A DNA stretch of 63,227 nucleotides, filler included, from Rhizaria sp. SCN 62-66 (taxonomy: Eukaryota): the NCBI GenBank assembly GCA_001724265.1. It is 11 parts of 11 records of this genome, joined end to end, with 100 filler letters (N's around TTAATTAATTAA, not from the genome) between each part and the next. Parts side by side here need not be neighbours in the genome. Positions count along the whole stretch, not along the records: positions 6,672 to 12,722 come from MEDY01000694.1; 10 more parts are not named here. One strand, written 5' to 3'. This document shows positions 6,672 to 62,300 of this stretch, one piece after another. Numbering within the stretch: position 1 is the stretch's first letter; each line of letters starts with the position of its first letter. The notes beneath the pieces were generated by a model. That model was not told the DNA's origin, ran no database searches, and saw only the letters and a list, made by a program, of their open reading frames with translations. The translations under genes were made by a program, and so were the position numbers.

Positions 6672-8240
6672 CACGGGTCGCGCACAGTCGCGCACATCGC
6701 TTTTCGTGTCGTTAACCGCACGAATAGGACTACGCTTGTTCATGTACAATACAATCTTGTTGTGGAGGTCGGCAATGCCGCTTAAATACAGACGGCTCAT
6801 GGCAACCACTTCGCCGCTCATCATCTTGCGGATTGCATCTTCAACAGCGCCAGCAACAATCCATACCTCGTCGCTAGAGTCGTCAAGCACAAGTCTGTGC
6901 AAATTCCTGCCACACGGAGCAGAAACCGCATTACACGGAGCACCTGTTATTGTTTTGGTGTAGTACGCGTCTAGGAGCGGAGGCACAGTCTCAGAAACAT
7001 CCGCAGACCCGAACATGCGTGTGGTTAATAGCTTCATCGGAATGATGGGCGCCTCGTCGAGCAATACGGGTTTGATCTGAGGATACGCGGCCACGATCTG
7101 CGCTAAAATTGCAGGTTTGCGTCCTGCAAGAGCGCGCTGCAGCAGGTTACTGAAATTATTTTGCCTGCTCTCCAGAACAAGGGAGCATAGCAGCTCGCCA
7201 CCCGATTGCCAGAGCATCGGTGAGTTCGAGAGTTCCGCGCTGCGCTGCCCCACATGCTCGATAAACTTCAGCGCGAGCTCAAAGCAGCGAAAGCAGCCGC
7301 CAAACGCAGCAGACATCAGCAGATCCAGCTGCAGGTTGCGGCTGCGTAAAGCGATCGCGATCGGCGCGGCCGCGCCTGAAGTCACATCGGCCGCAGCATT
7401 CCCGGTGTCGTCGCTGTTGCTGTTCGTGAGGAATGCAACCATATCGGCGTTGCCGTTGTTCGCTGCGGCAATAAGCGGAGAAAACAGCTGTACGCGCATC
7501 GCTTGCGAATCTAAAGGAAAGCTGTAGCCGCAAGGGCCTGCGTGGGTTTGCATAAACTTTTCCATGGAAGTTTGATTGAAAAAACTCGCACTTAAGAACT
7601 CGGCCGGGTCCAGGCCCCACGGAGGAGCGATCATTTCAACCAGCGTCGTACTAAGCCCGCGGGAAGCGTATTCCCCGAATGAGTCACGAATTTGCAAGTT
7701 CATAGCTGCCCACTGCGTCGGCGTCGAGGATGTATACAGCGCGCGCGCACAGGCGACGCGGTTCAGCAGCGCAGCTAACATGAGCGCAGTCGAGTTCGAG
7801 TTCCTAATGTGCTCAGTAACGTCAGCACCAGTCTAAAGTAGCGCCATAACAACGCGCGGGAGGTCAAGATGTACTGCAGCCGTGAGCGGAGACGATCCAC
7901 GATTCGCGGGGACGTTTACGCGCTCGTAAAATGTGTTCAGGAGCAGGGGGGAGCGGTCGCTCAGGGCTAAGGTGTCATTGATGTACACGGCGTAAAACTC
8001 TGGCTACAACAGAGCACGCGCTGCAGCCATGTTAAATAGAACCTCGTCTTCAATGCTAGCTTTGCTGGAGTCAACATCATCATCCTCTGCATCTGCTGTT
8101 GCCGTTGTTGTTGTGTCAGAAGTTGCAGACGCTGCGAGTTGCTCTATAAGGCGCACGAGTGCAGCTGGCTTGCAAAAGGATTCCGTTAGCGCAAGTGTCT
8201 CCAGGTAGGAAACCGCACGGCCATTTATGATACGTTGCAT
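6672..8240 (-). CDS. Ankyrin-repeat protein, 3' partial, read through two in-frame TAG (8004-8006, 7833-7835)
   Basis: ORFs 8004..8240 and 6624..7781 share a frame. The gap translates GSSPLTAAVHLDLPRVVMALL*TGADVTEHIRNSNSTALMLAALLNRVACARAL, i.e. ankyrin repeats. A further repeat SPLIAAANNGNADMVAFL follows. Confidence 0.85.
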
Positions 8241-8951
8241 TTTCGGCTTTTTGTGATTTCTGTCACTGATTTGGGCTTGATAAGACGTCTGTCAGAGAGA
8301 GTATCCAAAGAAGCTGTTGGGGATAAGTTTAATGAGTGATACCGCATGATCAAAATATTTTTTGTCGGGTTAGCTAATATGGTTTTAATTAACAGTTAAT
8401 TTAAACCTATATTTTGGTGTTAGAAAGACGAAAGGCAGAAAATCTATGGTGTTGTATGCCAAACAAGAAATGCAACGACACTCCTCCAAACTCCACCACC
8501 AACACACCACCACCAACACAAATCTGTCAGCATTGATTGCCACCAGAAAATCAGCATTCTCATTCACAACACGTCACGACTGCGACATTTGAGCAATATA
8601 TAAAAGCAGTATTATAACGTCACTATAATATCAATGTTCATTTATAAATATTGAATTTGTCATCATGTCATCTATCATTGCCAGTCTAGCTTATGTTCAT
8701 GGGTTCCCACGCATGCGTCACTAGCTTGTAATCCCTTGATGCACATCATGCAGCGGGTTGCCGTCAAGGTTCAAGCTCCTATTCATTGTTGTCACGTGAA
8801 TAATGTCGCAACATGACATTGATCGGCTGAGGCCTCAATAATCTATCTCGCCTGCTTCGCTGTCACGATGCAACAAAACAGTTTTGCGCGTACGTCCTGC
8901 GCAAACTGGCCCATTGAGCAGTGTGTTATCTAGATAGAATAAAGAAGTCGC

Positions 8952-10977
8952 TCAGAACGACACAGCGTCACGCTCGCCCCAGTCGAGTCCGCTGCGCACG
9001 CCGAGCCTCGTTGCCAATGCTGCGCATAGCGAAAGTTACAGTGTTTAGCAACGAGATAGTATGTTAAAAGAAAGTCGAGTACAAGTGTTAAAAGTGAGGT
9101 TGATTACATAATCACAGCAAAGTCGTCAAAGTCAGAAATTATATTGTTGCAGCGACATCTCGTAAAACGTACCGGTAAAGCGCGCGCGCGCGTGCAGCAG
9201 CCTGTCCGAGAGCGCGGGGTCCTGCGGCGCCCACAGCGGCGTCCCCAACACTGCGGCAACCAGGTGGAAGCACAGCTGCGGCGTGGAACAAAGACATAAA
9301 ACAAAGAAGAACAAAAAAAAGACATATAGGTTGCGTTAGAGTCTACGAGACATGTCAACTTGAATAAAACAACAATCTAAGATGTGAACTTTGATGAAAC
9401 ATATGGCGTACCTGTGTGATCTTATGCTTCGCCGCAGCCGACTTGACTTCCCTCTCGCCGACACTCGCAGCCTTGCCGACCGTGTTGGAAGCAGCAATCA
9501 CAGTGGTATCGTCCTCCACAACGGTGTCAGTCTTCGTAACAAAGACAGGTGTCTTCTTGCCAGCCACAGCAGCCCCCGCATCAGCCTCAACCTCAGGCGC
9601 GGCAGTCGCAGCCGAGGCAGAGGCAGAAGATGAGGCAGCGGCAGACGCGAGCGCGCGCGCCTTGGCCTTGGCGCGCATACGCTCTGCAAACGTCATCTTC
9701 CCAGCGCCTGCGTTCGCAGCAGAAACCGTGGCGGTGTTGGCGGCAGCGTTGGTGCTCGCGGCGGCGTCTGCTTCGTCGTCGCCGTCGGCGGTCACGCCCG
9801 TACCCGCACCTGCACCGGCACCGGCGCCGGCAGCGGTCGATGAGGCTGTGGTGGGGGCGGCGGTGCTCTTGCTGCTGTTGCGCCGGGGGCCAGCAGCAGC
9901 CGGCCCCACCGCTTCGCCGTCGCCGTCGCCGTCGCCGTCATCAAAGTCACCAGGGTCCACAGCACTCGTTCTAGCGCTCACTCTCGCAGCGGCAGTGGCA
10001 GTAACCGAGGGCAGCGCCAAGTGCGGCGTGGGCGGCAGGTAACGCGCGCGCAGGGCCGCCACCTCGGCGCCCAGCAAGCCCGCCAGCGCCGCCGCGGCCT
10101 GCGGAAACGCCGGATGCTCGCCGCTGCCAAGCGCTAGAGCACTACCACTGCCAATACTGCTGTTGCTGCTGCTGTGGGTGATGACATGGCTGTTAGTGTC
10201 GGTCTCGATCGCCTCGACCGGCTCGGGGCCCGCGACAGCAACAGGGGCCACGGCTGAGGCCGTCACCGCAGCGGCACCAGTGGCAGCCGGAGCAGAGGCA
10301 GAAGCAGAAGCAGGGGCAGGGGCAGTGGAAGCGTTGGCGCGCGCGGCGGCGACGTCAATGGCGCGGGGCAGCGGGCGCGGCAGCGGGGCGCCGGTGGCCG
10401 CGTCTGCGCTCGCAGCAGCGAGGCCGGCCGCCACGGTCATGGGCGCAGTCGGCAAGCTCGCACCGGCATTAACAGCCGCAGCAGTCGCAGCGGGAGCAGT
10501 CGCAGTCGCGGCGGGGGGAAGATTGCCGGTGTTCTGAAGCCAGGTGAGCGCAAAACCAAGGTAGAAACCGAGCTCATCGGCAGCGGAGCGTCCGTACTGC
10601 TCGCCCTGTGTGTGAATGTGGTGAGACGCAAGCGAAGTGCAACAAAAAGATGAACCAGTGATGGAAGTAGCAGCGCATCATAAAGAAGGGTGAAAAAAAG
10701 ATATACAGTAGAATGACGCTTCTTTCCGACAAGTCTTTGGACGTACGAGCTTGTACCCGTCGGCGCGGCCCTTCTCGAGCCCGGCCACGAGGCCATCGCG
10801 GCGGCTGGCCGCCAGCAGGCGCTCCTCCAGCATCACCACAGAGTCAAATATATCATCCGTTGACTCTGAAGACGAAAAAATGGCGCGTACAGCGTCGGGC
10901 ACGACGCGAGGGGGCGTGTGTGGACGCGAAGACGGCGCGCTGTCGCCGCCATCGTCGCCCCAAACATCGTTCATCAT
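8952..10977 (-). CDS. LTO1: LTO1/ORAOV1 homolog (Fe-S adaptor for Rli1/ABCE1). Four exons: 10977-10747, 10605-9412, 9275-9173, 9019-8952. About 531 aa with a large Ala-rich insert
   Basis: DIFDSVVMLEERL followed by the GX3 repeat GLVAGLEKGRADGYKL|GEQYGRSAADELGFYLGFALTW. C-terminal PQDPALSDRLLHARARF...VSF-TGA parallels ORAOV1. Three GTACG...CAG introns preserve the frame. Confidence 0.85.
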
Positions 10978-12159
10978 TGTGGTCAGTCAGAACTACGAGC
11001 CAACATCGTAGAGATAACAAAGTTTTTATGAAGTATAAAAAAGTGAAAATAGAGTACATTAATGAGCGGTTGTAGATTGTACTTTAAAATTGCGATTAAC
11101 GGATCCTCTGGCTTCCTACATTGAGTAATGCAAGGCTCAACTGTTCGGTTGCTCTTCAGTTGCGGTGCGATTCAACTTGTGGTTGCAATGAATATCCTTT
11201 TGCTTACCGTGGTTCACTTGTCAATAGACATCAAATCCGCTTCTCGACAAGAGAGATAAGATAATCTGTCTTTTTGCTTATTATTTTGCGTCTTGTGAGC
11301 GTTGTTCTTTCTCTGCAGATGTGCGCATCTTGGACATCCGGAACATCGGGCTTTGTGAAGCTTAACTGAAAAGCGATGTGCAGTTGTTGTATACCTTTAA
11401 AATAAAATGTGATGATATGATACTCAATTGCTTTCCTGCTGCTGCGATATTCATGGTCGGTTAACTGTTTACAAAGTGGCATGTCAGCTAATGTTACTAT
11501 TAATACTAGTACTAGTAGTACACCACCTGACATCAACACAAGTTTATCAAGCCGAATGTGAATGACTGTGCGATCACATGGCCCTAATAACGAGCGACTC
11601 ATATGTATGCCCGTCCACGACTGAGCCGTTGCTGCTGTAACTTATAAAGGTGTCCGCCGCGCCCATGGGCTGCTTAGTGAGTGTTCAACGCTTGGCCATC
11701 ACGAGTCTTTAGAGTCTGCGCCGTCAAGTAAACTAATGCGGTCAGCGCTGCCGTGCGTCCCACCCACGTCACCGAGAGAGAACCTCACTTGCAACTCCCA
11801 GCACCACTGCGTCCCCCCCTGGCACCGACAGCCCCCTTGCTCTCACTCCTCATTGTTCTCTTGCTACCGCTGCCGCACACGTCGTCATATTAATACCTAC
11901 TCCTAGTATTGTGCTCTTTGCGGCGGAAACCACACACAATCCCCTTTTTTTTAATACAGTGCTGTTACGTAGAAATATGAACAGACAAGTAAGTAATGCC
12001 CAACTATGAATAATCAATAAGCTTACATTTATTTTTATAAGCTTTACCTTAAGATTAAAGTAGAAATTACATTTGAAACAAAAAAAGACATATTATTTTT
12101 ACATCTAAGTACACTAAAATCGACGCCAAAATGTTATCAAGTGCAATTTTAAGACTACC

Positions 12160-12232
12160 GTCTAGTTGGCTCAGTTGGTAGAGCGTGGGTCTCATAATCC
12201 CAAGGTCGCGGGTTCGATCCCCGCATTGGACA
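12160..12232 (+). tRNA. tRNA-Met (CAT), elongator type
   Basis: Cloverleaf: acceptor GTCTAGT/ATTGGAC, D-arm GCTC..GAGC, anticodon loop CTCATAA with U31-U39, T-arm GCGGG-TTCGATC-CCCGC. A T-run follows. Confidence 0.96.
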
Positions 12233-12234
12233 TA

Positions 12235-12241
12235 TTTTTTT
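12235..12241 (+). terminator. RNA polymerase III oligo-T terminator
   Basis: T7 run immediately after the tRNA. Confidence 0.8.
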
Positions 12242-12822
12242 GCCCGTCACGCCGCCCTTGCCGCGCCGCCCCGCGCCCACGCACACGTCCCTTTACTTTT
12301 GCTCCCGCAGTCCTTGCCACCCCACCACCACCCACCTCGCCAACTGCACTCAAGCATCACGGTCATGAGCAGCTCACACTTTCGGCAGAGTTGTGAGTAT
12401 GCGGCTGCACTGCTGTTAAGCGGCGCACTTATCATCGACGACAGATACCAGCCCCTTCGTCGCTGCATATGCTTTAATAATACTCGTTCAAATATATTAT
12501 ATTCCGATGTTGCGGTTTACAATGTGCGATATTATGTGCACTTCTGCTTCTTACGTTGGTCATTGTTTTCTCAGCGGAAATTACATTCAGTGATTTTATG
12601 AAGAAATTGTCGATGATATTAACTTATGTACCCCTGATGTAGAGGTTTATGAAAAACGCAAAAACGCGCCTGGAAGGGGCGGTTTTAAATATCCATACAA
12701 CTTTGCCAAACATCCGTTAAATNNNNNNNNNNNNNNNNNNNNNNNNNNNNNNNNNNNNNNNNNNNNTTAATTAATTAANNNNNNNNNNNNNNNNNNNNNN
12801 NNNNNNNNNNNNNNNNNNNNNN

Positions 12823-18632: not shown

Positions 18633-21600
18633 GTCGACACGACCTACCCTCTGCTACTTGACGCCACGCCGCCCGTGTCGTTCCGCTCGCTCGCGCGCGC
18701 AATGCTCCCAATCACAACTGATCCTGCGCTGCCGAATATCCCGATCCTTGACTTCGACGGCACCGCGTTCGCATTCAACTTGCTCATCTGGTTCTGCACC
18801 AAGCCGCTGCGGCCCGACGCGCAGTTTTATCTCTACACGCGCGGCGTTAATGGGGCTGCACCACTTTTCACTGCTGCTGTGCCGCAGGTCTCTGAGGACG
18901 TGAGTCAAGGCGGATTCGAGTACACGTTTCATGTTGGCTCACATACTGGTTTTATCTTACTGCAGCGCTCCAATGCAGAGTGCGAGATTCACGACGAAAA
19001 TGGAATCCTAACCTATGTTTCTGACACAATGCCCACAGTTCAGCCCATGATGGACGTCCTTGCGGACATGCTCGACCGGCGCGTGCGCCTCACCGTCAAT
19101 CCCACCGGTGTGCTACCGTTCATCAGCAAGGACGACGCGTTCAAACTCACGTTCTCGGCTAGCATGTCTGCGACCGGCTGTGTGTCTTAGCATGCAGTTG
19201 TCACAGCGGCTTCGGCCAATGTGGTTTCGTTTGTTCCCACGCTTACGCACTCCACAGCGCGCGCCATCGAGGTTATCTGCAATTTCCCCCACGATGCCTT
19301 CTCGCCCGTGCTCACTATCACTTCGCTTAACGGCATTACTGTCGCGGTCGCGTACACGATTGGCACAGTCTCAACCTCTCTTGTGCGCTTCTACTCCGCG
19401 CCTCTGCTGGCCGCCGTGCCGCACGCTCTTACCGATGCCAACGCTGTTGCCGCAGGCTTAACCGCATTTGCGCTGCCCGAGTCCATGCAGGGCGCCAATG
19501 TTACCTACTCTGGCTACAGCGCAACGCGTGAGTTACACAGGCTTGCGCACTTTGGCTATGTGCACGCCAACGGCAGTATCACAACTGCGCGCGCCCACCT
19601 GAGCGTGTCTGGCGACCGGTCGACGATGGAGCTTATTGTTCCTGCTACCGCAACTGGCGTTGTGTTGTTCCGTCGCCGTATCGTTGACGCATATCTTGTG
19701 CCTACAACTGGTCCCGCACTGGATCTGCGTCGAGCGCCTATTCAGCCGTTAGCGGCTCGTGTTACGCTTGGCACAAGTAGTGGCACCATGGTGCCCGGAA
19801 ATGCTCACTTTGGTTACTTCATGACCGGCGATATTGTCGAAATTAGCACGTTCAATGCTGACCCTAACATCGTCGCAATGGGTAAGTATGGCACATATAC
19901 CGCCGCGTACAGCAACGGCATGCTGTCTCTCGCTGCAAAATATGGCACTGACATTGGCTTGGTAAACTCCCAGGTTAACATCACGTCCCTTGACTCTGGT
20001 TTTAGTTACGCTGCTGGACAAACGCCCAAGATGTTGCTCAGGCGGGAGGACGATGTCGCTGTAGACTTTGTTATTATCAACCACGGCGTTGAGCGGGCTG
20101 ACGGCTCTTACTATTCCACACACTTCACGCCTATGTACATTGCACCCGGTCCTGCGCCAGTGCTGCGCTACTTCTCCTGGCTTGAGAACCTTCCAGTTGT
20201 TCCGCTGCCACGCGAGCAAACATCAGCTGCCTTGGCCCAGTCTTTCGTGGCAGCCTCTCCTGTTGTTGCTTCGCGCGCCTCCGCGTTGGCGCGGGCTGCT
20301 GCTGTGGCTGCAGCGTATGAAAACTCCCCAGTTCTGCTTGCGGGCGGTGACAGTGTCGTTACGCTCCGCTGCTCTGCGCTATTGAACGCTGTTGGCGTTG
20401 TTGCGGCTGATACACGGAGTCTCTCTGTTGTCGAGCTTAAGCAGTGGGGCACGCGCATTAACGGCGGCACTTTCCTGTTCCACACACTCATCGTCGGCAA
20501 CGCTGCTGGTCTTGTGTTCTTTGCGCGCTCAAGGACGATTGCGTGTGACATTCTTACAGAGGATGCAACTGCAGCGCTTGTGTCGCTGGCGCCGTTGCCG
20601 TTTGTTCCGGTGTACGCTGATGTCGCAATCACCGAGACCCGCGCTGTGGCAGCTCCGGCCGACGCTGCCGGCACAGTGGCCACGGACCAGTTGCTCACGA
20701 TCACGCCGCGCGGCCGGTACGGCTTTCTGGACTCCGGTGACGTGTTCACAATCGGCGCCTTTACGGGTCTTGCACAGGCTTCCTTTGCACTCAACGTCAC
20801 TGCAGTCACCGCGAGCATTAACGCCGCTGTGGGCACGGTCACGCTCGCGATTGCAGATCTCCCTGGCCAGTCGCCGGTCGGCGTCGCGCTGCGCGCTCTG
20901 CTGCGCGGTGGCGTCGCTGTCGAGAACTCCGACAGCATCGCGGTCACGGTTACCAGCGCGGGCGGGTTGGTGTTTGGCCCCGTGCTGCAGAGCTCGCCTG
21001 CGGGCCCGCTTGCGCTCACAGTAACGACGCTGCTGGAGACCGAGGTTGGGATGCTTCCGGGCACCGACAGCGTTGGCGGCTGGACTGTTTCCTACGCGCT
21101 CGATTCCACGGTCAAGGGCAGCTACCCGCTTGTGAGCTTCATCTTCCAGGCCAAGTCCGTGGCAAGCTTGCGTTCCGATCTTGCACGCGTAAGATACTCT
21201 TTCCCAACCGGTGATATCGACGCGCTACTGCGCTTTGACGGCCGCGACGCGCCTGTCTACTGTGAGGGCGCGCGCGCGGTATGCACTGTAGATTCCGTTG
21301 CGGCCACGGTCACGATCGAGGCCCCCGTAGATGCTGCAGCCGCGTTTACCGTGAGGCTCTACGGTGCTCGTCTGCATGGCAGCAAGTACACAGTCACTGC
21401 TGATGCTGTCGCGGCAGGCGTGCTTATGTCATCGCTGCAACTTCCCGCGGTGGATAATACTGTGGAGCTGATGGCGCTTGATCTTGACACAGTTAGCTTC
21501 CATGTGCCTGTGTATCGCATTCCCGAAACCGCAGCACTGCACGCAAGCACGCTCGCTGTGCTCTGCCCCGCTGGCGACCTGACGCACGCCGCGCTTGTGC

Positions 21601-24600
21601 TGGCCGACGGCACTTTAGCGCTGCAACGGCTCACGACTGACGTCGCCGTGTTTGAGGACATGTTCCCGGGCTCTGGTGTCTCCGTCGCGCTGATCGACTT
21701 TGCCACGGCGCGGAGTGTCGCGCTTTTCACGCACGAAAACCGCCGCTGCACTGCGCGGTTTATCCGCAACGACAACGCGTTTGCGACCGAGATGTCCGGG
21801 CTTTACAGCTTTGCGTTTGACGCCGTGCCGCACCGCACCGCCGCAGCCATCACCGTTTCCAACAACAACGGCAACGGCGACGCTGCACTGCGCGTCGTCA
21901 TTGCGCCGCAGACCGAGCTCGGCTTCTTTAGCGCCGGCGACGAACTGACGCTGTCTCACGGCATTGCCACCGCGTTTAACAACGGCGTTGAGTGCTCTGT
22001 GTCGCTCCCGGGCGTCGCTGCGCGCGCCTCGGCCGCCGGTGTTACCGTCGCAGTCGAGGAGACCACCGTGCCCGGCGAAGTTATCGGGGTCACCTGCAAC
22101 GGCGTGGACGTTTCCCCCGCCGCGCCCGCCGGACTGCGCGCAGTGTTTGCCTCTGCGACAGCAGCGGAGGCGCGGTTTGGCGTTCGCGGCGGCGAGAAGT
22201 CGCTCTTTACGCTTAACACCGACGGACTGGCCGCGGTCGCCGCGGGGCCCGTGCCGCTGCCTGCGACGGCGATCACGCTGTCGCTCGCGACGCCTTACGC
22301 TGACAGCGAGAGTGAGTTCTCCCTGAACATCGCTGCTGGTGGCGCTGATCTCCCTGTCGGCGCGGTGATCGCAGTCGAGTTCCCGCACGACTATGCGCCT
22401 CTTCTCAGCACCGGCGCCGCGACAGTCCCGTGCTCCGCTGCAGACGGCGCCGCCGAGCTCAGCCTCACAATTACGGCCGCGGGGCTCTCGCTTACAATCG
22501 TCTCCGGTGTCGCTCACGGCGCTGCTGAGAACGTAATCACGTGCGGCTCTGTGCGCACTGCACCGGGGCCCTCCGTTGGCACTAATTCTGCTGCGGCCGC
22601 CGCGATTGTGACTGCCGCGTCAGTGTCGCTGCCGTCGAGCGAGGGTCAACTGGTGCAGCGCTTTACTGTGGCGAACATTGCGCTGCCCGCGCTTTCTCTG
22701 CTGCCCGACGCTGTCGAGCTTGCTGCCGCCAAGCTTGCACCGGCCATTGGCAACGTCTTTGCTGCCGGCGCTACGGGACAGGCTATGTTCGTGACTCTGC
22801 CCGCGCTGCCCATCGCGCTGCCCGCCGGCGCCAAGGTCATTGTCACTGCGGTACTGCTCCGTGGCACCGCCTCCGACGATGGCATTGACTGTGCTGTTAT
22901 CGGCGACTTTGCGGCCGCTTTCCCGGCTGCGACCGTCGATGCGGCCGCCGGCAAGGTCTCTGCAACTGCTATTGCTGCAGTCGCTGTCTCTGCCCAGGCT
23001 GTTGTTTTCCGTTGCAAGAATGTCAGTATCCCCAAGAAGTTCGCCGCTGCCTCCGCTGCTGCTGGCTCCTTTGTGATCACCGCGACGGCGTCGCTGGCCC
23101 CGCGCCAGTACGTCCTGGCCAAGGGCGCTGTCTCCGCCGCCGCCATTCGCGGCTCCGGCCCCGTCAGCTCCTCTTTCTCGGCGGCCGCTGTCGGCGAGAT
23201 TGGCAAGATGAAGTTCCTCTTCTCAGACATGGCTGTGTTCAACTACAAGTCCTGGCTCTGGGGCTCGCTGTTTGACGGCTACAAGATCGAGAAGCTGCCC
23301 AACATGGAGCTCGAGTTCGAGGTTGCGCTGCCCGCGACTGTCAAGCCCGTAGCGTCCGGCTTTAGCTGCGTCATGGACCCTTACTCCATCCAGCTCCCTG
23401 GCGTCACAGTCTCCCTTGCCTCTGTCAACGTTGCGGCCAGCACCTTCCGCTTCAAGACCGTCGGCCCCATTGACGGCGACGGTCTCGCTGTTGTCTGTGC
23501 CAACCTTGTTGCTGCCGCCTCCGCGCCTCACGTCGTCGCCCCCGTTGTAACCGCCTACGTCGCCAGCGTTGCTGAGCCTATCTTCCAGGCTGTCCACTCT
23601 GGCCGCGCTCCCTACCCCCCCTTCGTCCCCGTCGGTGCTGCCGAGGTCGCTGCGTCGTTTGCGCCCGTTGGCCTCGTTGCTTCCGCGTCCCGCTTCTCGC
23701 TTGTCTTCACCATGCCCAAGTACCTTGCCCTCGAACAGGGCTCCGTCGTCTCCGTCACGCTCGGCCCCTCCGCCGCCGTCTCCGTCGCGGGCGCCGTCAC
23801 GTGCTCGCTCGGTGCCACCGCGTACAACGCCGAGCAGCGCGCGCTTACCGTCATCGTCGCCAAGACCACCGCTGCCAACGCTGCTGTTGCGCTTACGTGC
23901 GATGGCTTCGTCAACAACGAGTCCGAGGTCGATGCTAATGTTGTCGGCAACACCGCGACTGTCCGCGTCCTGACCGCCGCCGGAAACGTCGTTGTTGACG
24001 CCGTCGCCGTGCCCTTCGGCGCTGTTACTGCTGCCCGCTTCACTGCACAGGTCTCTGCCGGCGCACCGCTGCAGGCTAGCGACATTGACCCCAAGCTGGA
24101 GGCTCTCAGGGCGTACTACGTTGAGGGCTACAAGCCGCGCACTGTTGTCACCGCGCCTGAGGACGCCGTCACCATCACGCTCGGCAGCCTTGCGCGCGTC
24201 ATCACCGCTGCGGACGAGGTTCACATCACGCTGCCCGCTGCCTTCGAGTACTCGCACACCAACGCGAGCGCTACAACGCGACCCTGCCTCTGCCCGACGC
24301 CGACGTTATCGCCTCTGCTCGTGTCGCCAAGACCGCCGCGCAGGGCACGCAGCTCCAGCGTTGTCTGCGTCGGCATCACTCGCCCCGTCGGCGTCACCAC
24401 GTCCACGGTCACCAACGCCACTGTCTACACCAGCCAGCACGCCGTCATCGCCCGCTCGTCTTCCGTCATCCTCGCTGCCGTCGGCGTCCCCTCGATCGGC
24501 ACCGAGTACGCTTACCTGATGCCCGACCTTACCGTTGCCGGTGAGTCCACCACCACTGCGTATACGCTCTCGCTCGCGCCCCTCAGCGTCGCCATCCCAG

Positions 24601-24707
24601 CCGGCGCCGTCGTCTACTTCCGTCTGCCTGCTGTCATTACTGCGGGCTCTGACGTCAAGTGCCAGGCGCTCAAGTGGAACAAGAAGGTGTCCGCTCTCAC
24701 CGTGTCC
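18633..24707 (+). CDS. Very large (>2000 aa) Ala/Val/Thr-rich protein built from repeated beta-rich Cys-pair modules, probably a surface protein. Partial at both ends, one in-frame TAG at 19188-19190
   Basis: ORFs 18675..19190 and 19221..24755 share a frame and are joined as GCVS*HAVVTAASANVVSF. Recurrent module xLPxGxx(I/V)x(V/L)xLP..C..T(I/V)..TC. Confidence 0.8.

Positions 24708-30541: not shown

Positions 30542-30607
<66 letters not shown>
30542..30607. repeat. (CA)n microsatellite at a contig end
   Basis: About 33 AC units. Confidence 0.97.
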
Positions 30608-30609
<2 letters not shown>

Positions 30610-30961
30610 ACACCAAGATGACGAAAATTGAAATGAAAATGTAATTATTTTGAGGAGGGTAAGAAATCACACACTGTCGAGTGCTTATTTTCGTTGTTGG
30701 ATGAGCCAGTGACAGCCGCAAAGAGAGCGGCACATAGAGAGTGGCGCCATTGACCCGCAAGTGGCAGTGGCTGCAGTGACTGTAGGCGCGTGCGTGAACC
30801 AGCGCCAGTTCGCGTCAAGGTGACTGTGCACACAACAACACAACGACCGACCGGGAGCGAACGCCGGCACAAGGCACGAGCAAACAGCCTGCCAGCGCAA
30901 AGGCAGTGGCAATGGCGGTGGCCGTGGCCGTGGCCGTGGGGGCAGTGGGCGGAGAGCGTGT

Positions 30962-31885: not shown

Positions 31886-31925
<40 letters not shown>

Positions 31926-34900
31926 TGCTGTTGCTGCTGTTGTTGCTGCTGGAGCAGTTGCTGCAGCTGTTGTTGCTGCTGCAACTGCTGCTGCTGCTGT
32001 TGCAGCTGGAACAGCGCCTGCAGCTGCAGCTGATGCTGCTGCTGTTGCTGCGCCTGCGCCTCCTTGGCGGCAACCGCGGCAACGGCGGCCGCAGCACTGG
32101 TGCTCGCGCCGTTGCCACCGACAGCGCCGTTCACAGCGTTGCCGCCGCCGCCGCCGCCATTGGCGTTGGCGTTGCCCGCGAGCAGAAGCGCGAGCACTGC
32201 GCGCGCGGCCTCGCCGTTGCCGCTGCCGCTGCCGCCGCCGCCGTCGGCGCCGGGGGCCGAGGAGGCGCTCGCGGCCAGCAGCGCCTGCAGCAGCTGCGGG
32301 GACACGCTGTTCGCGCCGCCGCCGTTGTTGTTCATAACTGCGGCAACCACACCGGTGTTGCCGGCAGCGCTGTTGGCCGCCGTGGCGTTGTTGGCCGCGG
32401 CCGCCGCGCTCGGGTGCAGGGGACTCATGCCGGCGCCGCTAGGGCCAGACTGGCGGCGCATCGCCATCAGCTGCAGCTGCGCCTGTGCCTGTGCCTGTGC
32501 CTGGGCTTGGGCCTGGGCTTGGGCTTGGGCTTGGGCGAAGGCCGCGAGCTGCTGCTGTTGCTGATGCTGCTGCAACACGAACATCAGCTGCTGCAGCTGT
32601 TGTTGTTGTTGCTGTTGCTGTTGCTGCTGCTGCTGGGCCAGAGCCAGCGCCTGCGCCTGCGCATGGGCCTGAGCCAGAGCCTGCTGCTGGGCCTGCTTGG
32701 CCTTGGCCTTGGCCGCGGCCTGCTGCTGCAGCGCCTTCTTCTGCTGCTTCTGCATGGCTGCGACGGCGGCGGCCTGCGCCTGCGCCTGCGAGTGGGCCGC
32801 CGCGGCCAGCGCGCGCGCGTGGGCCGCCTCGGCCTGCTTCAGCTCCATCTCCAGCTGCCGCTGCGCCAGCAGCTGGCTACGCGCGGCGTCGCCGGGCTGC
32901 TGTGCGATGTCGACCCCAGCCGCGGAGAGGGCGTCGAGCTGCTGCTGCTGCTGCTGCTGCTGGAGCTGCAACTGCTGGAGGTAATGCGAGTAGTAGTCCA
33001 CCTGCTGTTGCGCTGACAGGGCCGCCGCAGCTGCGGCACCGCCGTTGAGCGCGCCGCCGGCGGCGGCGGCGGCGGCAGCGTTGCCGTTGGCGGACAGGAG
33101 CGAGGGGGAAGCGCGGGCGCGGGCGCCCTTGCCCGCACTCGCGCCGCCGACCTGCGCACCCCCGTGTGTTACCCCATGTGTTCCGCCTTGTGTTCCGCCC
33201 GCGTGCGGCACCAGGTGCGAGCCGTGCGCGTGCGCGGCGACGCTATGCAGCGCCTTGGCCTTGACGGCCTGCGCCTGCGCCGCGAGGTGCTGCTGCCGCT
33301 CCCGGAGTGAGCGCGAGTCGAGGGCCGAGTGCGGCGCGAGGGCCGTCGCCACACCGAGGTGACCGTGGGCGTGACCGTGGGCGTGGGCGTGGCTGTGGCC
33401 GTGGGCAGCCACGTAGTCGCCCGCCTGGATGGTGCCGTCGGCTGAGCCGGTGGCGTCGGTGTGGCCAGCGCCGGCGCCGGCGCCGGCGGCGTCAGCGTCG
33501 TAGCTGCCGTCCCCGCCGCCGTTGCTGCCATCGCCCATACTGGCGGTGTGGCCGCTGCTGCCGGCGTATTGCTGCGCCACTGCGTCATACGCACGGCCAC
33601 CACCACCGTCCACCGCGCCCCCCACAGCGCCGTCGCCGCCGTCGCCGCCCTGGCCGCCCTGCGCGCCCTCCGCAGAGCGGCCGCGCTTGCGCGACTGCGT
33701 CTGCGTCTGCGTTTGAGATTGCGACAGAGCGTTGCTGTACGCGGCTGCGGCTGCGGCGGCCGCAGCGGCGTTGGCGTTGGCGGCGTTGGCGCGGAGGCCA
33801 GGGACCGGCAGACTCACAGCTCCGTTGGTGTCGTCGTAGCCGATGATGCCGCTGCCGTTGACGCTGCTGTCTTCGGGGGCCGCAACAAACACGTTCTGGG
33901 TGCTGAAGTAGCCAGAGCCACCGTCCGCGCCCCCGTTGCCAGAGCCAGAGCCAGAGCCAGCGTTGTTGTTGGCCAGGCGGGCGCGGCTGGCCGCACCAGT
34001 GCCCGTCCCAGTGCCCGTGCCAGCGCCAGCGCTCGCGGCACGGGCAGCGCCAGCAGCAGCAGCTCGGACGGCAGCGGCGGCGGCCCCCGCGGCAGCCTTG
34101 CCCCCGGCAGCGGCGGCGGCTCTGCTGGCCGGCCCCTGTCCGCCGGCTCTGCCGCTCGCATCCAGGACGGCGGCCGCGGTGGTGGGTGGGGCCGAGACGG
34201 GGAGGATGGGCAGGCTGCGCGCGGTGAGGTACTCGACAGCCTCGGCGTCGCTCGCGTCGACCGGGATCGTGTGCCGCCCGCAGTATACGTACGCGCCGTG
34301 GATCGGGACCTGCGCGCGCGCCGCAGGTCGCGGAAAAGAAGGGGGGGAAAAGAGGTACGGTCGGGCGGAGTGAGCGATGTTCAGGTAAAGTACGGTAGGA
34401 ATTTTACGCACAAAGAAACGGACATAGAGACATGCAAATGCAGTACAGTTGATAAATTACAGTAGAATATTGAAATGTGCATATTTTGGTTTAAATTGCG
34501 ATGCATATATTGATATTGCGCTTCGTTTTCGACGACCTACCTGGTGCGCCCTGTTGTAGGTGAGCGAGAGCTTGGTGCACGAGAGGAAGTGGTGTGAGCG
34601 CCGGTCGCACCGGAAGGCGACCGCGCTGCGCAGCGCGTTGGCCGTGGCGAGCAGCTCCTGCGTCGACGGCCGGCCCTGGCGGTCGTAGTGCTTGAGGTGC
34701 GCACGGCACACGGGCGTACCCGGCTGGCAGGGCGCCGTGTGGCACAGCTCGCCCAGGCGCTCGAACTTGCAGATCCAGATGCATGATAGCGGGAGCCCCG
34801 TGTTGGGGTCGAACGAGATGTAGTCTTCGATGCGGTCATCGAACGCCGTCGCGCCGCCGCCACCGCCGCTGCTACCACTGACAGCGGTTGACGCTCCAGG

Positions 34901-35596
34901 AGCAGCAGCGGCAGCAGCCGAGGATGAGGAGGGGTCTTGGCTGTAGGCGTAGCCGCTGCCGCTCCTGGTGGGGGCGGAGGCGACCGGGAGCGGGGCCGCT
35001 GCGCCGGCGCTGCTCGCGGCCGCGTTGGCGCTGCCGGCGGTCGCATTGGCGCCAGAGAGCGCGCTGTAGCTGCTGGCGTCGCCCGCGGCGCTATAGCCGT
35101 AGCCACTGCCCTCGGTCTTGACAGGCGCGGTCGTCGCGGTGGGCAGGAGCGTGGACGCGGCGGCGGCGGGACCCGGGGCGGGGCTCTTGAGGGCCTCGAG
35201 CCCCGCCGCGGCGCCCGGCTCGGTCTTAAGCTCGGCGGACTTGCCGGCGCCTGGCTCGGTCTTGACTGAACCTACGGTTCTGCTGCCTTCGCCGAGGTTG
35301 TCTGCGGCGACCGGCTGGGCGGATCCAGAAACCTAGTGTCCTCGGCTGCGACTGGGGGTCGCCGCAGTTGCTGTAGCAGAAGCGCTGGCGCCAGCAGTGC
35401 TCAGAGCGGCTGCGGCGTCTGCGGATGCGGGTGTTGCAGAGTCAGTGCCCGACGGGGAGCCGTCAGCGCTCACCGGAGGACTCGGGCCGTCACTACAGGA
35501 GACGCTCGCGCTTGAAACCAAAGCAGCTGTCGTAACAACATTGGTCGTAGTGCTGCTAGAAGCCGCGTAGCGGGCGGCTGCGACGGTAGGATCCAT
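30962..35596 (-). CDS. PolyQ/Ala-rich putative transcriptional regulator with tandem C3H Zn-finger-like motifs. Exons 35596-34541 and 34309-30962, in-frame TAG at 35333-35335, ends TGA
   Basis: ORFs 35333..35596 and 34457..34711 share a frame. Three (V/L)KTE SUMO-type motifs. CKFERLGELCHTAPCQPGTPVCRAH and C..C..YCGRH motifs. Phase-0 GTAGGT...GCAG intron. RKRGR NLS-like motif and long polyQ tracts. Confidence 0.78.
31883..32050 (-). repeat. CAG/CAA polyglutamine tract
   Basis: (ctg/ttg)n on the plus strand. Confidence 0.95.
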
Positions 35597-36274: not shown

Positions 36275-38698
36275 TCCTGTGGTGATCTCAGGTGAGGTGA
36301 GCTTGAGTGCGTCCTTGCTGATCACGTACGGGTCGTTGGTGGACACACGTGAAGCTTCGTTAGCAAACACAACACGCATATCGGAAATAGCGCAGGAGAT
36401 CATTGATTCAATAGCCGTGTACTGTGTGACAGTGATTGTAATCTTATTGCTTGTCGCGGCAATCGTGCATTCGCCGCTTGTGCGTGTGGCTGATGAAAAG
36501 TCAAATGACGTCAGAGCCGTGGTTAGAACAAGCTGTGAGCCAACGGAAAGTATTTCGCCAGCTTCAATGTTAAATGTGCCGGCGAACGTAGAGGCAACCT
36601 GCGTAAAGTTACCTGATACAGGTGTCAACACAAGAGAGCTTGGAGTGTAACTAAATGTCGTCGAGTGCAATTTAGCAACAATAGGCGCCTGCAACGATGT
36701 CGCCACCGTCACAGGGTTGCCCGTGGTAGCTTGTGAAGTCAGATGAACCATGAGACAATAACCTGGAATCGACGGCGTTGCAGTACCTAGCGGGAAAACT
36801 ACATTGGTAATGTTTAACTGGACCTTGCCTGAGCCAAGAGTGGCATTGGCGGAGCAGGAAAACACGAAACGCGTTGTGGCAGCCGAAACCGTTGAGCAGC
36901 CCGAGTTGGTGATTGCAGAGCTCGTCGAGAAGAGTACGGGCGAGCTGTCGCAGAAGCGAATCGTGCCCCGCACGCCGTCAACGCTGCTAAAAAGAGACTC
37001 AACGCCAGCACCATACCAAGTAGTAAATGCGGTAGTGAATGTATCATTTGGGCCCGATGTGCCGGTACGTTGAAGACCCTTAACAGTAAACTCCAGCTGT
37101 GCAGGCGTGTAGATGCGCGTGTTACCAGCGTAGTTACCACATCCGTAGAAATGCCACATTTGATTGCTATATGCAGTATAGTAAGCCGCTGGCCTCGCAG
37201 ACACTGACAATGTTGTTGCAGCATAAGTAGCCAATGTGTTAGCTGCCGTCGCAAGAAAGCGCAGGGTAATGGAGTTTGCGGCGTTATGATTGAAAATATG
37301 GTAGCCAAGATTTACGCGGAACACGTACTCCGTGTTAGATCGTTTCTCTCGCAATGAAATTGAATAAATAGTTGCTTCGTTTGCCTCAGTAAAAGGAGCA
37401 GAGAATGGGATTAAGGAATGACCAACAGCAATATAACTCAAATCCGTCACAATGGCTCCAAGGGCTGAGGTGATATCAATCTCAATATCAACAATAGAAG
37501 CACTGAATAGAGAGCCATAACTAGAATCAAAACCTGCTTTTGTTGCAGCAAGTGTGCGTGCGATAAAATTGCGGAAGCTCAACTCTAGAATGAAAGATGT
37601 CTCTGTTCCTGATCGCGGTGACGCGAGGCTACTCAGAGAAACACTGAGCATGTAGGAATCAAACTGCGTCAAGTCACTTGGGGTCATCAGGTATCCTCCT
37701 ATGGAGTACAATGGCACGGTTGATGAGCCATGATGGGCGACGGTTCGACCGTCGGAGTTACAACCAGGCTTGCGCAGCGTCGCTGACTTCGACGAGCCAG
37801 GAAGCATTGAGATCCACATTTTGTCCGTGTAAGACAGTGTTGAGGGGCATGATTGGATCTGAATCCCTGTAAAAATGTCGTAACACTCAGAACTGTCACA
37901 CTCCTGCTCCTTATACAGCTACGCACCCTGGCAGGGGGAATCTATATAACCAGTTAGAGGTTCAGGAAAACTTAAAACATCTGGACCGAAGTACACCAAA
38001 AAGTACGTACACCCGGTACATGCCAACGATATTTGATTTTCTGCGGTATAATAGAAAACATCTTCAATCGTTGTCTTGCCAGCTGCCATGTACTCCCTCG
38101 AAACGAGAACGCGCACGCCCGTGACATAGGCCCCTTGCATTGCTTGAGAACTAAAGCTTTGGAACTGTTTCTGATGTTGATGCTATTGCCTTTGCAGTGC
38201 TGTAGAAGTATATCCCAACTCTGTGGCGGTGCGACTGCTGCGACTTTTGACACCTCCCCTGGCACGCAACTGGTTTCGGCCGGCACGCTTTGAGTGCGAG
38301 GAGGCGGCGTGCTGAGCACGCTGAACGATCGCTTGCTCAGGAATATCAAGATGCCCACCTGGTTTATAGTTTGACAACATGCTGTCAAACGATTCATCCG
38401 TTGCATATGCAAGTCGACGCTGCAGGTTTGGCGGCAAGTGCGCCGGGTTCTCGTAAAGAATTTCGCGCAATGTTAAGTTGCTCGTGAGCCTATCTACGAA
38501 ACGCATGTATGCCTCAGCGCGCTGCGCCGAGTCAATCCGACTCTCCACAGGTCGCGGAATGTACGCAGCAAGAGGTGCGCTTTGTAAGTCACGAGGTCTA
38601 CCACTACTGCGAGCGTTCGGTTGCGAGTCCACATAGTCAAATCTTGTTGGGAAGAAGGCGGCAACCCCACAGAAAAGGAGACCTAGAGCGAACAACAT
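36275..38698 (-). CDS. Large secreted or surface protein, 3' partial, read through two in-frame TAG (38183-38185, 37919-37921)
   Basis: Three consecutive ORFs in one frame. Signal peptide MLFALGLLFCGVAA. Junctions TALQRQ*HQHQKQFQ and SPCQGA*LYKEQECDSSEC. Ser/Thr-rich beta modules with Cys pairs. Confidence 0.85.
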
Positions 38699-58941: not shown

Positions 58942-59306
58942 GTTCGTTGGCCTGCAGAGGATAGTGGATATCAAGACAAAGGAAGAGTGAAATCAGTAAG
59001 TAAAATAACGCCGTAATAGAAGTATGTAGTTCGTAGCTGGTGGTGGCATTCTATAGCTACTTGATGTGTCCCTGTCGCGAACGCGCTCTTAAAAGATTCG
59101 GTGCCATCGGTCAACAAGAAAACGGTTTTTTCTCCCGACCATTGGGAAGCCGTTTCTGACCACCTTAGAAATATGGTTCTCGGCATCAAGAATCCGTTTC
59201 TTAGAATCAAGCCTTTCTTAAATTGTAGTTTTTTTAGTTTTTCACCTAATATTTTCACCATTTTCTTGATCATGTTGTTCTTGTTCTTGTATTCGCAGCG
59301 CTCGTT

Positions 59307-62300
59307 ATGTACAGCGGCGCTTGGAACCAGTTCACAGACCCGTCAGCAGACTCGTCGTCCTCTTCGACGGGGCTAGGGCCAAATCCGACTGCAGATGAGC
59401 TCGCGCCGAACTTGCTTGTGCGTGCTGCGCAGGACAACGTGAGCGACATCTCAATGCACCCGAACGCGGCCTCACTCTTCGTCCGCCCAGCTGTCGTGTA
59501 CAAATCATCAGCCTCCTCTGCCGCCGCCTCTGCAGCGCCCCCGCGGCCCACCACGGCTGCTGCAGCTGCTGCCGCTGCGGCTCCACATGCCTCAGTCAGA
59601 ACCCCTGCTGATGGTGCCGACCCATTTTCCAACTTTGACATCTTCAGCGACATTTCCTCCGCCTTGGCCAACGGGTCCGCCGCTGGCCAGACACAGCAGC
59701 AGCCTGCTGTCTCCGCGACCGCTGCGCCTATCGTGCCACCCTCGCCCTCCGCAGTGCTGTTTGGCGTTGCGCACGGCCCGGCGCCAACGTCTGCGCACTA
59801 CTTGGCCTCTCTGCATGCGCACGCAGGCCTCACAACAGCCACGTCTTCATCCTCCTCCTCTTCGTCAAGCCCTGCTTCCGCAACTGCTGCTACTTCCTCG
59901 GCTTCGGCTTCGACTTCGTCGCCACCCTCCGCGTCCGGCGCGCCCCAGGGCCGTCCCCGCGGATCTGCGCCGCCGCACCCGCACTCGCTGTCAATGGCGG
60001 CGTCCGCGTCCGTCTCGGCCTCCGCGTCGGCGGCCGCGTCGCTGCCGCCGCTGCCGCCGAGCGTGAGCGACGACCCGTCGGTGGCCGCACTTATCGACCG
60101 GCTCTTTGCCGCGCTTGCGACCACGAACTCGGCCGCGGCGGCGCCGGCCCCGGCGGGTGGCGTGGAGGACGCCAAAGGCAGGGGAAACGGCAAAGAGAAG
60201 AGCAAGAGCAAGGACAAGAGCGGCGCCGACGACGACACTGACGGCGACGATGGCGAGGATGGCGACGACGATGACGCTGGTGGCGTGTTCTTGACCGCCG
60301 TTGCCGCCGACCCCGCTGCCGCTTCCGCCGCCACGGCTTCCGCAACCGCCGAGACTGCGGCCCCCAGCAGTACAGCGCTCGTGCCCGTGGCAGACGCTGA
60401 CGCTGACGCAGACGCCGAGGCCGACGCTGCTGCAGCAGGAGCTGCCGCTGAGGAGCCAGAGCTTGCGCCTGACGCCGCGCGGGCCGAGCGTCGGGCCCGC
60501 GCGCGCGCGCTGGTGCCGCTGCCGACCCCCGCGGCGGCGGCGCAGCCGTGGCCGCCTGCCGCGGTGGCCGCCGCCGCGCTGCTGCCGCTGGCGGGTCCGC
60601 TGGCGCCCGCGCGGCCCGCGCTCGCGGCGCTGCCCGCGCCCGTGCAGGCGCACCTGGCTGCGCTCGCGGCTGCCGCAGCCGAGTCCGCCGCCGCGCTGGG
60701 CGCGCCCCCGCCCGTCTCGGCGACCGCGGCGGCGGCGGCGGCGGCGAGCTAGAGCGCGGGCGAGGTCCAGGAGCCGGACCGCACGCTGTTCCCGGTGAGC
60801 GCGCCGCTGCCGCTGCCGCTAATGATGGGCCACCTCACGCGCATCGGGCTCTCGTGCCAGTGGCACCGCGGGCTCGCGCGCGGCCCGCCCCCGCTGCCGC
60901 TGCTGCCGCTGCCGCGCGCCGTGCCGCTGCCGGTGTTGGCGCCCGCGGTCGTGGCCGCGCTGCCGTGCGGCGGCGAGGACGAGCGCCGCGCGCTTACGGC
61001 CGCGCTGGCGCAGCCCGCGGCCAAGATGCTTGTGCTGGACCTCTTCTGGTACGCCTTCGCCGTGCTCTTCGGCGCCGAGCCCGAGCCGACGGTGGAGGAG
61101 GACGTCGCGGCCGCCGCGGGGCAGAAGAGCCTCGACGACGGCTACGGCGACTCCGAAACGGACTCGGGCCTCGACGACAACAGTGATGACAACACTAGCG
61201 ACAACGAGGGCAACAATGATGCCAAGACCAACAAGGGCGTCTTTTTCGCCCCGTCACAGATGCCGTCTCAGGCGGCGTCGCAGGCGTCCCGCTCCTCCGC
61301 TGCCAACCGCGGGTCCCGCTCCCGCGCGCTCACGGTAGCGCCCGTGTCGATCGCACTGACGGACGCGGACGTGGCCGCGGCCGCCGTGGCGCGCCGCCGC
61401 CGCCGCGCGCTGCAGCGCCGCCGCGCACGCCGCGCCGCGCAGTCCGCGCACCGCGCCGCCGCCGTCTCCGCGCTGTCTGCTGCGCTGCTGGACCGGCTGG
61501 CGCACTGCCACGTCGCGCTGCTGCTCTCGCTGCCGGGCGCCGAGCGCGACGCCGCACTGCACCACCTGCCCGCCGCGCTGGCGCACCTCACGGCCCTCTC
61601 GCTCGCCGCCGCCGCGCCCGCGCTCGCGGGCGAGTCCGCCACCGCCGCCACCGCCGCCGCCGCGGGCGCCTCGGGCGCGGGCGCGGGCGCGGGCGCGGGC
61701 TCGGGCGCGGGCTCGGGCTCGGACGCGGCTGAGGCGGCCGAGGCGCGCGCGCAGGCGCTGCGACTGGCGCTGCTGCGGTTACTGCAGTCGGGCATGCACG
61801 GCTACGTGCCCGCCGCGGCGGCCAACGCCGAGACCGTGACGCGCTGGCTGTCCGTCTCGCGCCAGTCGCAGCGCGAAACCTCGCTGCTGTCCGTGCTGGG
61901 CCACTCGGACGCCGCGCCTGCAGCGCTCGCGGGGCGGGGCGCCGCGGCGGCCGCGGGTGGCGCCGTGGGCCTCCTGGCCACGCGTCTGTCCGCGCTCGCG
62001 CTCGCTCTCCCCGCCGCGGGCTCCGCCATGGGCGCGGACGGCGCGGAGCACGGCGCCGGCAGCAACGGCTTCGGTGGGTCTGGCGCGATGTCTCACAGCA
62101 CTGCGGCCGCGATCGCCCGGGCCACTGCGAGCGCCAGCAGCAGCAACAACGCTAAGAACAGCACCGGCAGCGGCAACAGTGGCGACAGCGGCAGCGTGGG
62201 CGCCGAGAGCGGGCCGCAGGGCTTCACCTCGTCGCTGCGCGCGCCCGTCACGGAGCACACGCTGCGCTTGCTCGTCGGAAACGACATCGTGCCCTTCGGC

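Follow-up and report, generated by a model that had tools for sequence, protein, structure and literature searches.

Few nuclear genetic codes distinguish UAG from UAA in meaning, and the literature surveyed names only some nine species or genomes that have one. UAG is read as glutamine (Gln), with UAA kept as a stop, in the fornicate Iotanema spirale and in the ciliates Hartmannula sinica, Trochilia petrani, and Protocruzia tuzeti, and the GTS motif of the I. spirale eRF1 is mutated (PMC5304391, PMC9161772, PMC11687900). A UAG-to-Leu code is described for the rhizarian exLh (Sainouroidea, relatives of coprophilic amoebae) and for three TARA phyllopharyngean metagenome-assembled genomes (PMC5304391, PMC11687900), and a UAG-to-Ser code for the green alga Scotinosphaera (Li et al. 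2021, via PMC11687900). Ambiguous or all-stop codes are represented by Amoebophrya sp. ex Karlodinium veneficum, Blastocrithidia, and Condylostoma (PMC12005148, PMC12153298). Here we describe 63,227 bases of DNA (the window, by which the whole analysed stretch is meant) from the assembly GCA_001724265.1 of Rhizaria sp. SCN 62-66, in which an ankyrin-repeat gene and a gene for a secreted giant protein, g823, each carry two in-frame TAG codons. No report of UAG reassignment in a eukaryote of wastewater or activated sludge was found in the literature surveyed, supplementary files excluded.

In this organism TAG is probably read as an amino acid, a conclusion with several independent lines of support. 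The fuller statement, that UAG is a sense codon, most likely for Gln, and that UAA and UGA are stops, we hold at even chances. The TAGs are real DNA, they lie inside coding sequence in several unrelated genes, and coding constraint continues downstream of them. In total, the window has seven in-frame TAGs across five host open reading frames (ORFs; Table 1), and neither TAA nor TGA occurs in those frames; together with one TAG in an ortholog of g823, this is the UAG-only in-frame pattern of an NCBI table 15-type code, on a small sample. As in the Iotanema and ciliate UAG-Gln codes, UAG alone is found in frame, the gene ends that are visible have TAA or TGA, and TAG is paired with CAG in relatives. 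The genes make sense only if TAG is read through, because the Pfam Ank_2 match spans the ankyrin TAG at codon 136 and the next Met lies in the middle of a repeat; because g823 has a signal-peptide-like N-terminus 5' of both of its TAGs and conserved domains 3' of them; and because exon 1 of the poly-Gln/Ala gene has no Met after its TAG. The visible 3' ends of six ORFs, as defined by the ORFs themselves, are TGA in four cases and TAA in two, and never TAG, although this is weak, as zero in six would have a probability of (3/4)^6, or ~0.18, if one quarter of stops were TAG. Over the 11 ORFs tallied, there are six TAGs against 246 CAG and 100 CAA codons, and TAG thus makes up ~1.7% of Gln codons.

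Table 1. Positions in the window of the TAG-bearing genes, their in-frame TAG codons, and the other annotated features (asterisk, TAG; aa, amino acids)
Feature	Position	Strand	Remarks
Ankyrin-repeat gene, 5' part	6672..8240	-	ATG at 8240; 523 codons; runs off the excerpt at 6672
In-frame TAG, codon 136 of ankyrin gene	7833..7835	-	'LL-x-GADV' position of ankyrin repeat
In-frame TAG, codon 79 of ankyrin gene (RALL*PEF)	8004..8006	-	TCG (Ser) in second copy, same samples
Pfam Ank_2, best stretch, aa 107-169	7734..7922	-	38.4 bits (cut-off 27.3); spans the TAG at codon 136
Pfam Ank, further repeat, aa 253-273	7422..7484	-	35.0 bits (cut-off 21.1)
g823, secreted giant-protein gene	36275..38698	-	TAG at codons 172 (38183-38185) and 260 (37919-37921); ortholog L001, relatives P0002-P0016
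In-frame TAG	19188..19190	+	In ORF 18633-24707, 2025 codons, open across the whole excerpt
In-frame TAG, codon 88, exon 1 of poly-Gln/Ala gene	35333..35335	-	Exon from ATG 35596 to 34541
GT-AG intron, 231 nt, AT-rich	34310..34540	-	Joins exon 1 to ORF 30965-34309, phase 0; from sequence alone
In-frame TAG	60750..60752	+	Between same-frame ORFs of 500 and 640 codons, in 59250-62672; least certain of the TAGs, given a regional GC content of 74%
LINE with Exo_endo_phos, 1872 codons	2-5617	-	Apparently intact; no in-frame TAG
Copia with RVT_2, 1837 codons	12823-18333	+	Apparently intact; no in-frame TAG; ends with TAA
Gypsy with zf-CCHC, protease, RVT_1, and RNase H, 1255 codons	43194-46958	+	Apparently intact; no in-frame TAG

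The window is not a single locus. It consists of 12 stretches of 2.3-6.6 kb, with GC contents from 0.51 to 0.71, which are joined ten times by N44 + TTAATTAATTAA + N44 and once by a run of 31 N at 54525-54555; neighbourhood cannot be assumed for features on different stretches. The gene sample is small and includes no housekeeping genes. The ankyrin finding is located in the second stretch (6672-12722), which is present in bioreactor, wastewater, and activated-sludge metagenomes, with microbial fuel cells also among the samples. Between 88 and 97% of its sampled words were found in four runs (X1 and X3, from one study, X2, and X4), and 22% in the poly-A metatranscriptome X5. Runs X1, X2, and X4 date from 2016, 2017, and 2025, respectively, and X4 comes from another study; the statistics of X1 are the same as those of X2, and the two may represent a single data set. 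The organism is a GC-rich, intron-bearing, uncultured eukaryote that turns up repeatedly in metagenomes of these kinds.

Apart from its TAGs at codons 79 and 136 (hereafter TAG79 and TAG136), which are 57 codons apart, the ankyrin frame contains no TAA, no TGA, and no frame break over its 523 codons, which bears out an earlier reading of this DNA (hereafter the preliminary description) that had noted a second TAG 57 codons upstream of the first and no other lesion. The frame reads ...FNMAAARALL*PEFYAVYIND... around TAG79 and ...SSPLTAAVHLDLPRVVMALL*TGADVTEHIRNSNSTALMLAALLNRV..., i.e., ...SSPLTAAVHLDLPRVVMALL*TGADVTEH..., around TAG136. The gene belongs to the Pfam clan Ank: the match is above the curated threshold, and the repeats are in register across the TAG, which was thus correctly placed inside an ankyrin repeat by the preliminary description. 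The sole database relative of the ORF is a public ORF call, P0001, of 479 aa, which is 100% identical over the shared part and extends 108 aa past the excerpt. It starts at the first Met after TAG136 (position 7781), in the middle of the next repeat (TALMLAALL). Ankyrin clusters surround P0001 whether its neighbours are sought by language-model features or by predicted structure; from these and the Pfam matches, the whole protein is a long, degenerate ankyrin solenoid. When the read-through protein was compared with PDB, 222 sequences were found at E<=1, the best being ankyrin-1/2, ASB7, and DARPins. An AlphaFold single-sequence model of aa 61-297 was unusable, with a mean predicted local distance difference test score of 38.4. 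The density of off-frame TAA and TGA in host ORFs is ~0.025 per codon (484/19,338 codons), and the probability that the 151 non-TAG codons 5' of Met 7781 lack both by chance is ~0.02.

The ankyrin TAGs are not assembly errors, because contigs of three DNA runs match exactly. Logan contigs of X1, X2, and X4 each cover 7740-7987, which includes TAG136, with 0 differences, and the reference allele at TAG79 is found in all three; neither indels nor contig joints occur within the ankyrin gene in these contigs. At codon 79 there is also a second contig, in which a plus-strand T>G change at 8005 converts TAG to TCG on the coding strand. Its depth is 4.0 of 8.93 in X1 and 5.3 of 14 in X4, and eight more changes are linked to it between 8017 and 8084, giving D53S (two bases), S58Y, S59I, R75H, and three synonymous differences. 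Contigs over the ankyrin gene add up to a greater depth than those over the flanking intergenic DNA, and the TCG copy is therefore another locus, haplotype, or strain. The preliminary description had named two findings that would count against it, the lack of an ankyrin match across the TAG and reads showing a decayed copy; the match does span the TAG, and the reads do show a second copy, with TCG, yet there is no sign that the copy in the window has decayed. Poly-A RNA contigs of X5 lie on the ankyrin ORF at 6672-6728 and 7204-7504, with 0 differences, and also on neighbouring genic DNA, and RNA depth is zero in the four bins spanning the intergenic 8288-9095. Separately, at position 7398 (third position of codon 281), the contigs of X1, X2, and X4 read G where the window has A.

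Which residue TAG136 might encode was assessed by translating the region 7600-8006 with the TAG replaced by each of nine residues or X and scanning the products with Pfam; of the two ankyrin TAGs, TAG136 alone lies inside the matched stretches. The scores in bits, for Ank_2 and Ank, respectively, were: Glu, 29.8 and 25.9; Lys, 29.5 and 26.1; Gln, 29.3 and 26.2; Ser, 28.8 and 25.6; Ala, 28.6 and 24.3; Arg, 28.5 and 25.8; X, 28.0 and 24.4; Tyr, 27.3 and 25.4; Leu, 26.6 and 23.3; and Trp, 25.8 and 24.3. Glu, Lys, Gln, and Ser therefore all score above Leu and Trp in both profiles, and Gln is favoured over Leu by 2.7-2.9 bits and over Trp by 1.9-3.5 bits; the spread among the four is at most 0.6 bits for Ank and 1.0 for Ank_2. 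In 12 repeats of ankyrin-1/2 and ASB7, the residue facing TAG136 is Glu in four, Gln in three, Lys in two, and Asp, Asn, and Gly in one each, and is never hydrophobic; PDB alignments with DARPins show Lys, and once Ala. The preliminary description had proposed that this TAG constrains the amino acid in favour of Gln over Leu or Trp. This is partly borne out: the position is indeed a polar surface one that disfavours Leu and Trp, but a real constraint on the residue is not supported, and Gln is not separable from Glu, Lys, or Ser. The ankyrin argument is thus valid but weak, consisting of one site and ~3 bits, and the reciprocal TAG/CAG pairs of g823 and its ortholog are better evidence for Gln than the ankyrin profile.

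A profile search of 1.84 billion representatives yielded a g823 family of 14 members, many of them fragments, and public gene calls split g823 itself into P0010 and other pieces. P0002 has 81% identity to the C-terminal two thirds of g823, and P0003, at 42-45% identity, has a signal-like N-terminus that is continuous into the domain over the same span. As a lead only, the feature-atlas neighbours of the C-terminal part of g823 are eukaryote clusters, in which Perkinsozoa, Ciliophora, and Oomycota are the commonest labels. A scan of metagenome contigs detected one locus matching g823; this locus, L001, is a Joint Genome Institute metagenome contig of 1,783 bp that carries the 5' end of a close copy and derives from a different metagenome. 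The alignment of L001 with the window includes 546 bp of upstream non-coding DNA, and L001 is therefore an ortholog or homeolog of g823 and not a stray paralog; divergence between the two copies corresponds to a synonymous distance (dS) of ~0.2. The homology-defined frame of L001 contains exactly one stop, a TAG, which faces CAG (Gln143) of the window gene. In the opposite direction, the window TAG at codon 172 (TAG172) faces CAG in L001, whereas the TAG at codon 260 (TAG260) faces AAA, and more distant relatives have Tyr, Ala, or Ser in the TAG260 column. The nearest-copy partners of four TAGs, ankyrin codon 79 included, are thus CAG, CAG (in reverse), AAA, and TCG, in columns that are not strongly conserved. 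One of the TAG/CAG pairs lies in a Gln-rich tract (QRQ*HQHQKQ versus HMQQQQRQKQ), where P0003 also has Gln.

Sequence 3' of the g823 TAGs has been kept as coding, as judged from in-frame indels, rising identity, and an open frame. The upstream non-coding DNA of the window and L001 is 69.6% identical at the nucleotide level and contains 13 gap events, of which only two are multiples of three; codons 173-326, directly 3' of TAG172, are 80.3% identical and contain two gap events, both of 3 nt. If 13 indels in 546 bp is taken as the neutral rate, ~11 would be expected in 462 bp where two are observed (Poisson P ~0.001). Amino acid identity between g823 and P0002 rises from 67-68% over aa 173-326 to 84% over aa 327-560 and 90% over aa 561-808. 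Codons 261-808 of g823 are open, and in neutral simulations (2,000 at each distance) the probability of no stop arising was 0.009 at 0.10 substitutions per site and 0.08 at 0.05. Some relatives end at two common alignment positions (P0003 with P0013, and P0006 with P0012), after SISL[RK] and after KRSNT, where the window gene continues with Glu and P0002 with Gln at the first and Glu at the second. These shared ends were not counted as conserved in-frame stops, because they may equally be phase-2 introns, in which NNG|GTAAGT would read as a residue followed by TAA.

Were UAG translated as Gln, the expected mechanism would be that of the Iotanema and ciliate cases: a tRNA-Gln with anticodon CUA, one base from CUG, which would read UAG and not UAA, and an eRF1 that no longer recognised UAG efficiently. 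Both components are predicted from those known cases. The change would then affect UAG only, in the pattern of NCBI table 15, UAA and UGA would still terminate, and the two ankyrin TAGs would be ordinary, rare Gln codons. In several respects the organism departs from these systems. Unlike ciliate macronuclei, it is GC-rich (51-71%) and has intact LINE, Copia, and Gypsy elements and a 231-nt intron; unlike all of the UAG-Gln cases, its TAG usage is very low, and no TAG is conserved between copies. The UAG-only change and the dung and gut habitat of Sainouroidea, not far from wastewater, recall exLh, where, however, UAG is frequent, with 384 in-frame occurrences in 71 genes (PMC5304391, PMC11687900). 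A UAG-to-Leu code is not supported here: Leu scores 2.7-2.9 bits below Gln at TAG136, none of 12 ankyrin repeats has a hydrophobic residue there, and none of four partner codons encodes Leu. The organism resembles Amoebophrya, Blastocrithidia, and Condylostoma in having in-frame stops in about half of its genes, at which public gene callers cut. Those genomes are AT-biased, use all three stops as sense codons, and have many in-frame stops per gene (a mean of 13.6 in Amoebophrya, mostly UAA), whereas there are one or two TAGs per gene here and neither TAA nor TGA. Blastocrithidia and the Amoebophrya were rejected on these grounds as the source of the DNA.

Several observations weigh against UAG being a Gln codon, or a sense codon at all. 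No TAG is common to both copies in any of the four comparable cases, which makes the TAGs either recent or transient, a property that nonsense alleles would share. The assignment to Gln rests on two of four partner codons and one Gln-rich context, and C-to-T transitions would favour CAG/TAG pairing regardless of the code. No tRNA with anticodon CUA was found in the window or L001, and neither eRF1 nor any conserved housekeeping gene was found in the window. TAG is absent from the 4,964 codons of the three intact retroelements and from seven other host ORFs. Given the codons present, TAG would account for 54-61% of random nonsense changes, so that seven or eight TAG-only events have a probability of ~0.01-0.03 under random nonsense mutation, which is suggestive but not decisive; moreover, the TAG-only run is partly circular, because the ORFs were delimited by allowing TAG. 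For the window gene and L001, the ratio of nonsynonymous to synonymous substitution (dN/dS, NG86) rises from 0.44 ahead of the first TAG position to 1.17 (bootstrap 0.70-2.07) in codons 173-326, which follow TAG172. This pattern would be expected for a truncated protein, and likewise for a diversifying surface protein. No RNA contig crosses any TAG; X5 has none at all in bins 7682-8085, where the ankyrin TAGs lie, and that absence is uninformative either way. Finally, an apparent frameshift at 53338-53347 in another surface-protein ORF indicates lesions or unrecognised small introns in the assembly.

The sole confirmed tRNA in the window is a tRNA-Met(CAT) at 12160-12232 (+; Rfam, 65.7 bits). 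Two further ARAGORN predictions were set aside: a tRNA-Ser(GCT) at 31651-31738 (+) lies inside the poly-Gln ORF and, having no Rfam support, is probably false, and an intron-allowed tRNA at 45284-46581 would require an implausible 1,203-nt intron. A log-odds scan of codon usage for stops with coding-like flanks was likewise discarded as too noisy, since the 28 that passed, out of 3,077 stops, included many in antisense or low-complexity frames.

It is possible, though we think it unlikely, that UAG is translated as a residue other than Gln (Ser, Glu, or Lys), or that near-cognate tRNAs read it in a leaky, context-dependent manner while it still serves partly as a stop. The TCG at ankyrin codon 79 of the second copy and the AAA facing TAG260, with Tyr, Ala, and Ser in more distant relatives, would both fit, as would the two TAGs in Ser-rich contexts (CVS*H and AAS*SAG), the inability of either ankyrin profile to separate Glu, Lys, Gln, and Ser by more than 0.6 (Ank) or 1.0 (Ank_2) bits, and the rarity and lack of conservation of TAG, which suit inefficient and ambiguous decoding. 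A UAG-only change with one TAG paired to TCG is also reminiscent of Scotinosphaera. Green algae are GC-rich and have Ala-rich proteins and introns, but activated sludge and microbial fuel cells were judged an unlikely setting for an alga. Against any such residue stand the two reciprocal TAG/CAG pairs between orthologs, which also distinguish the organism from Scotinosphaera, the position of one pair in a Gln-rich tract where P0003 likewise has Gln, and the fact that GAG, AAG, and TTG are never the partner codon.

Equally unlikely in our estimate is that the code is standard and that the TAGs arose as nonsense mutations of the usual sort, in most cases from CAG, in alleles or paralogs undergoing decay. 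The affected copies could be part of the reservoir of a surface-protein family, or could represent one of two diverged haplotypes. Of the five ORFs concerned, three evolve fast, are lineage-specific, and have no Pfam family, a neighbouring ORF of the same kind has a possible frameshift, and the excess depth over the ankyrin gene reveals a second copy, which has a sense codon at position 79. That copies share no TAG, that dN/dS is ~1 directly 3' of the TAGs, and that 54-61% of random nonsense changes would be TAG in this GC-rich genome are all as such mutations predict. However, five of about 12 host ORFs in 63 kb would then be pseudogenes, disabled by TAG alone and with no TAA, TGA, or frameshift in those frames. 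Both g823 orthologs would have been hit independently, yet hundreds of codons stayed open, indels are in frame only, and downstream identity is 84-90%; the simulated probability of no further stop (0.009-0.08) and the deficit of indels (two versus ~11, P ~0.001) argue the same, and between 2016 and 2025 the runs show no change in the alleles. Mixed lesions and a loss of downstream constraint, which would mark a pseudogene, were not found, although dN/dS is ~1.2 in aa 173-326. The remaining alternative, sequencing or assembly error or removal of TAG at the RNA level by a short TAG-containing intron or U-to-C editing, is very improbable: the organism does have introns and no RNA contig lies over any TAG, but three runs representing at least two independent data sets are exact at TAG136 and carry the TAG79 allele, the ankyrin gene has no joints or indels, the ankyrin register and g823 homology run codon for codon through the TAGs where an intron would break both, and the sole intron seen is AT-rich, unlike the TAG surroundings.

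If UAG is indeed a sense codon, its reassignment might be young or still ambiguous, in a GC-rich genome of a eukaryotic lineage not yet known for one, though we put this forward only tentatively, as rather doubtful. An early stage is suggested because TAG is rare (~1.7% of Gln codons), each TAG is private to one copy at a dS of ~0.2, and TAG is absent from six gene ends. In such early codon capture, UAG would have been freed from termination by GC pressure and would be re-entering genes via CAG-to-TAG transitions. Most known stop-codon reassignments are in AT-rich genomes. The organism would thus provide a new, independent case of a UAG-only change in an unusual eukaryote, GC-rich and retroelement-bearing, with sparse and apparently young TAGs; it would be a useful test of codon-capture versus ambiguous-intermediate models and, were the reassignment young, would exhibit the early stage of codon capture that is usually only inferred. 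Because public calls cut proteins at TAG, as in the mid-repeat start of P0001 and the splitting of g823, protein catalogues from wastewater metagenomes misrepresent this organism.

Other features of the window are noted briefly. For the Copia protein, no match was found in the genome contig collection, and no homologs were found for the N-terminal 450 aa of the 18633-24707 ORF (lengths 247-788 only). On the ankyrin-bearing stretch, an X5 RNA contig of 413 nt with 0 differences covers 10976-11388, where no convincing ORF is annotated; this may be an unrecognised gene or untranslated region. At the end of the same stretch (12625-12722), a repeat begins, and the summed depth in the DNA runs increases from ~6 to ~600; many loose contig ends begin at 12624-12629, and variant letters occur at 12681, 12686, and 12692. 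The segment may be the end of a high-copy element, and a 28-mer from it had no exact match in the prokaryote genome collection. A (GT)n microsatellite occupies 30542-30610, at the end of an excerpt. At 30826-30965, the poly-Gln ORF ends ...LPLRR-TGA, with GTGAAC at the stop, and a pyrimidine-rich ...TGTGCACAG lies ~140 nt further on; the TGA terminator of this ORF could be the start of another intron.

Two long T/S/V-rich ORFs, 52196-53344 and 53338-54522, abut one frame apart, and a frameshift or, alternatively, a small GT...AG intron lies at 53335-53390; a 41-nt candidate for the latter (53344-53384) would restore the frame. The ORF at 54558-58058 (+) is open over its whole stretch; Sushi/CCP repeats (122 bits) are present in its product, as are an EGF-like segment and IPT/TIG domains. 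This ORF, g823, and the ORFs at 18633-24707 and 52196-54522 suggest that the organism is rich in giant secreted or surface proteins.

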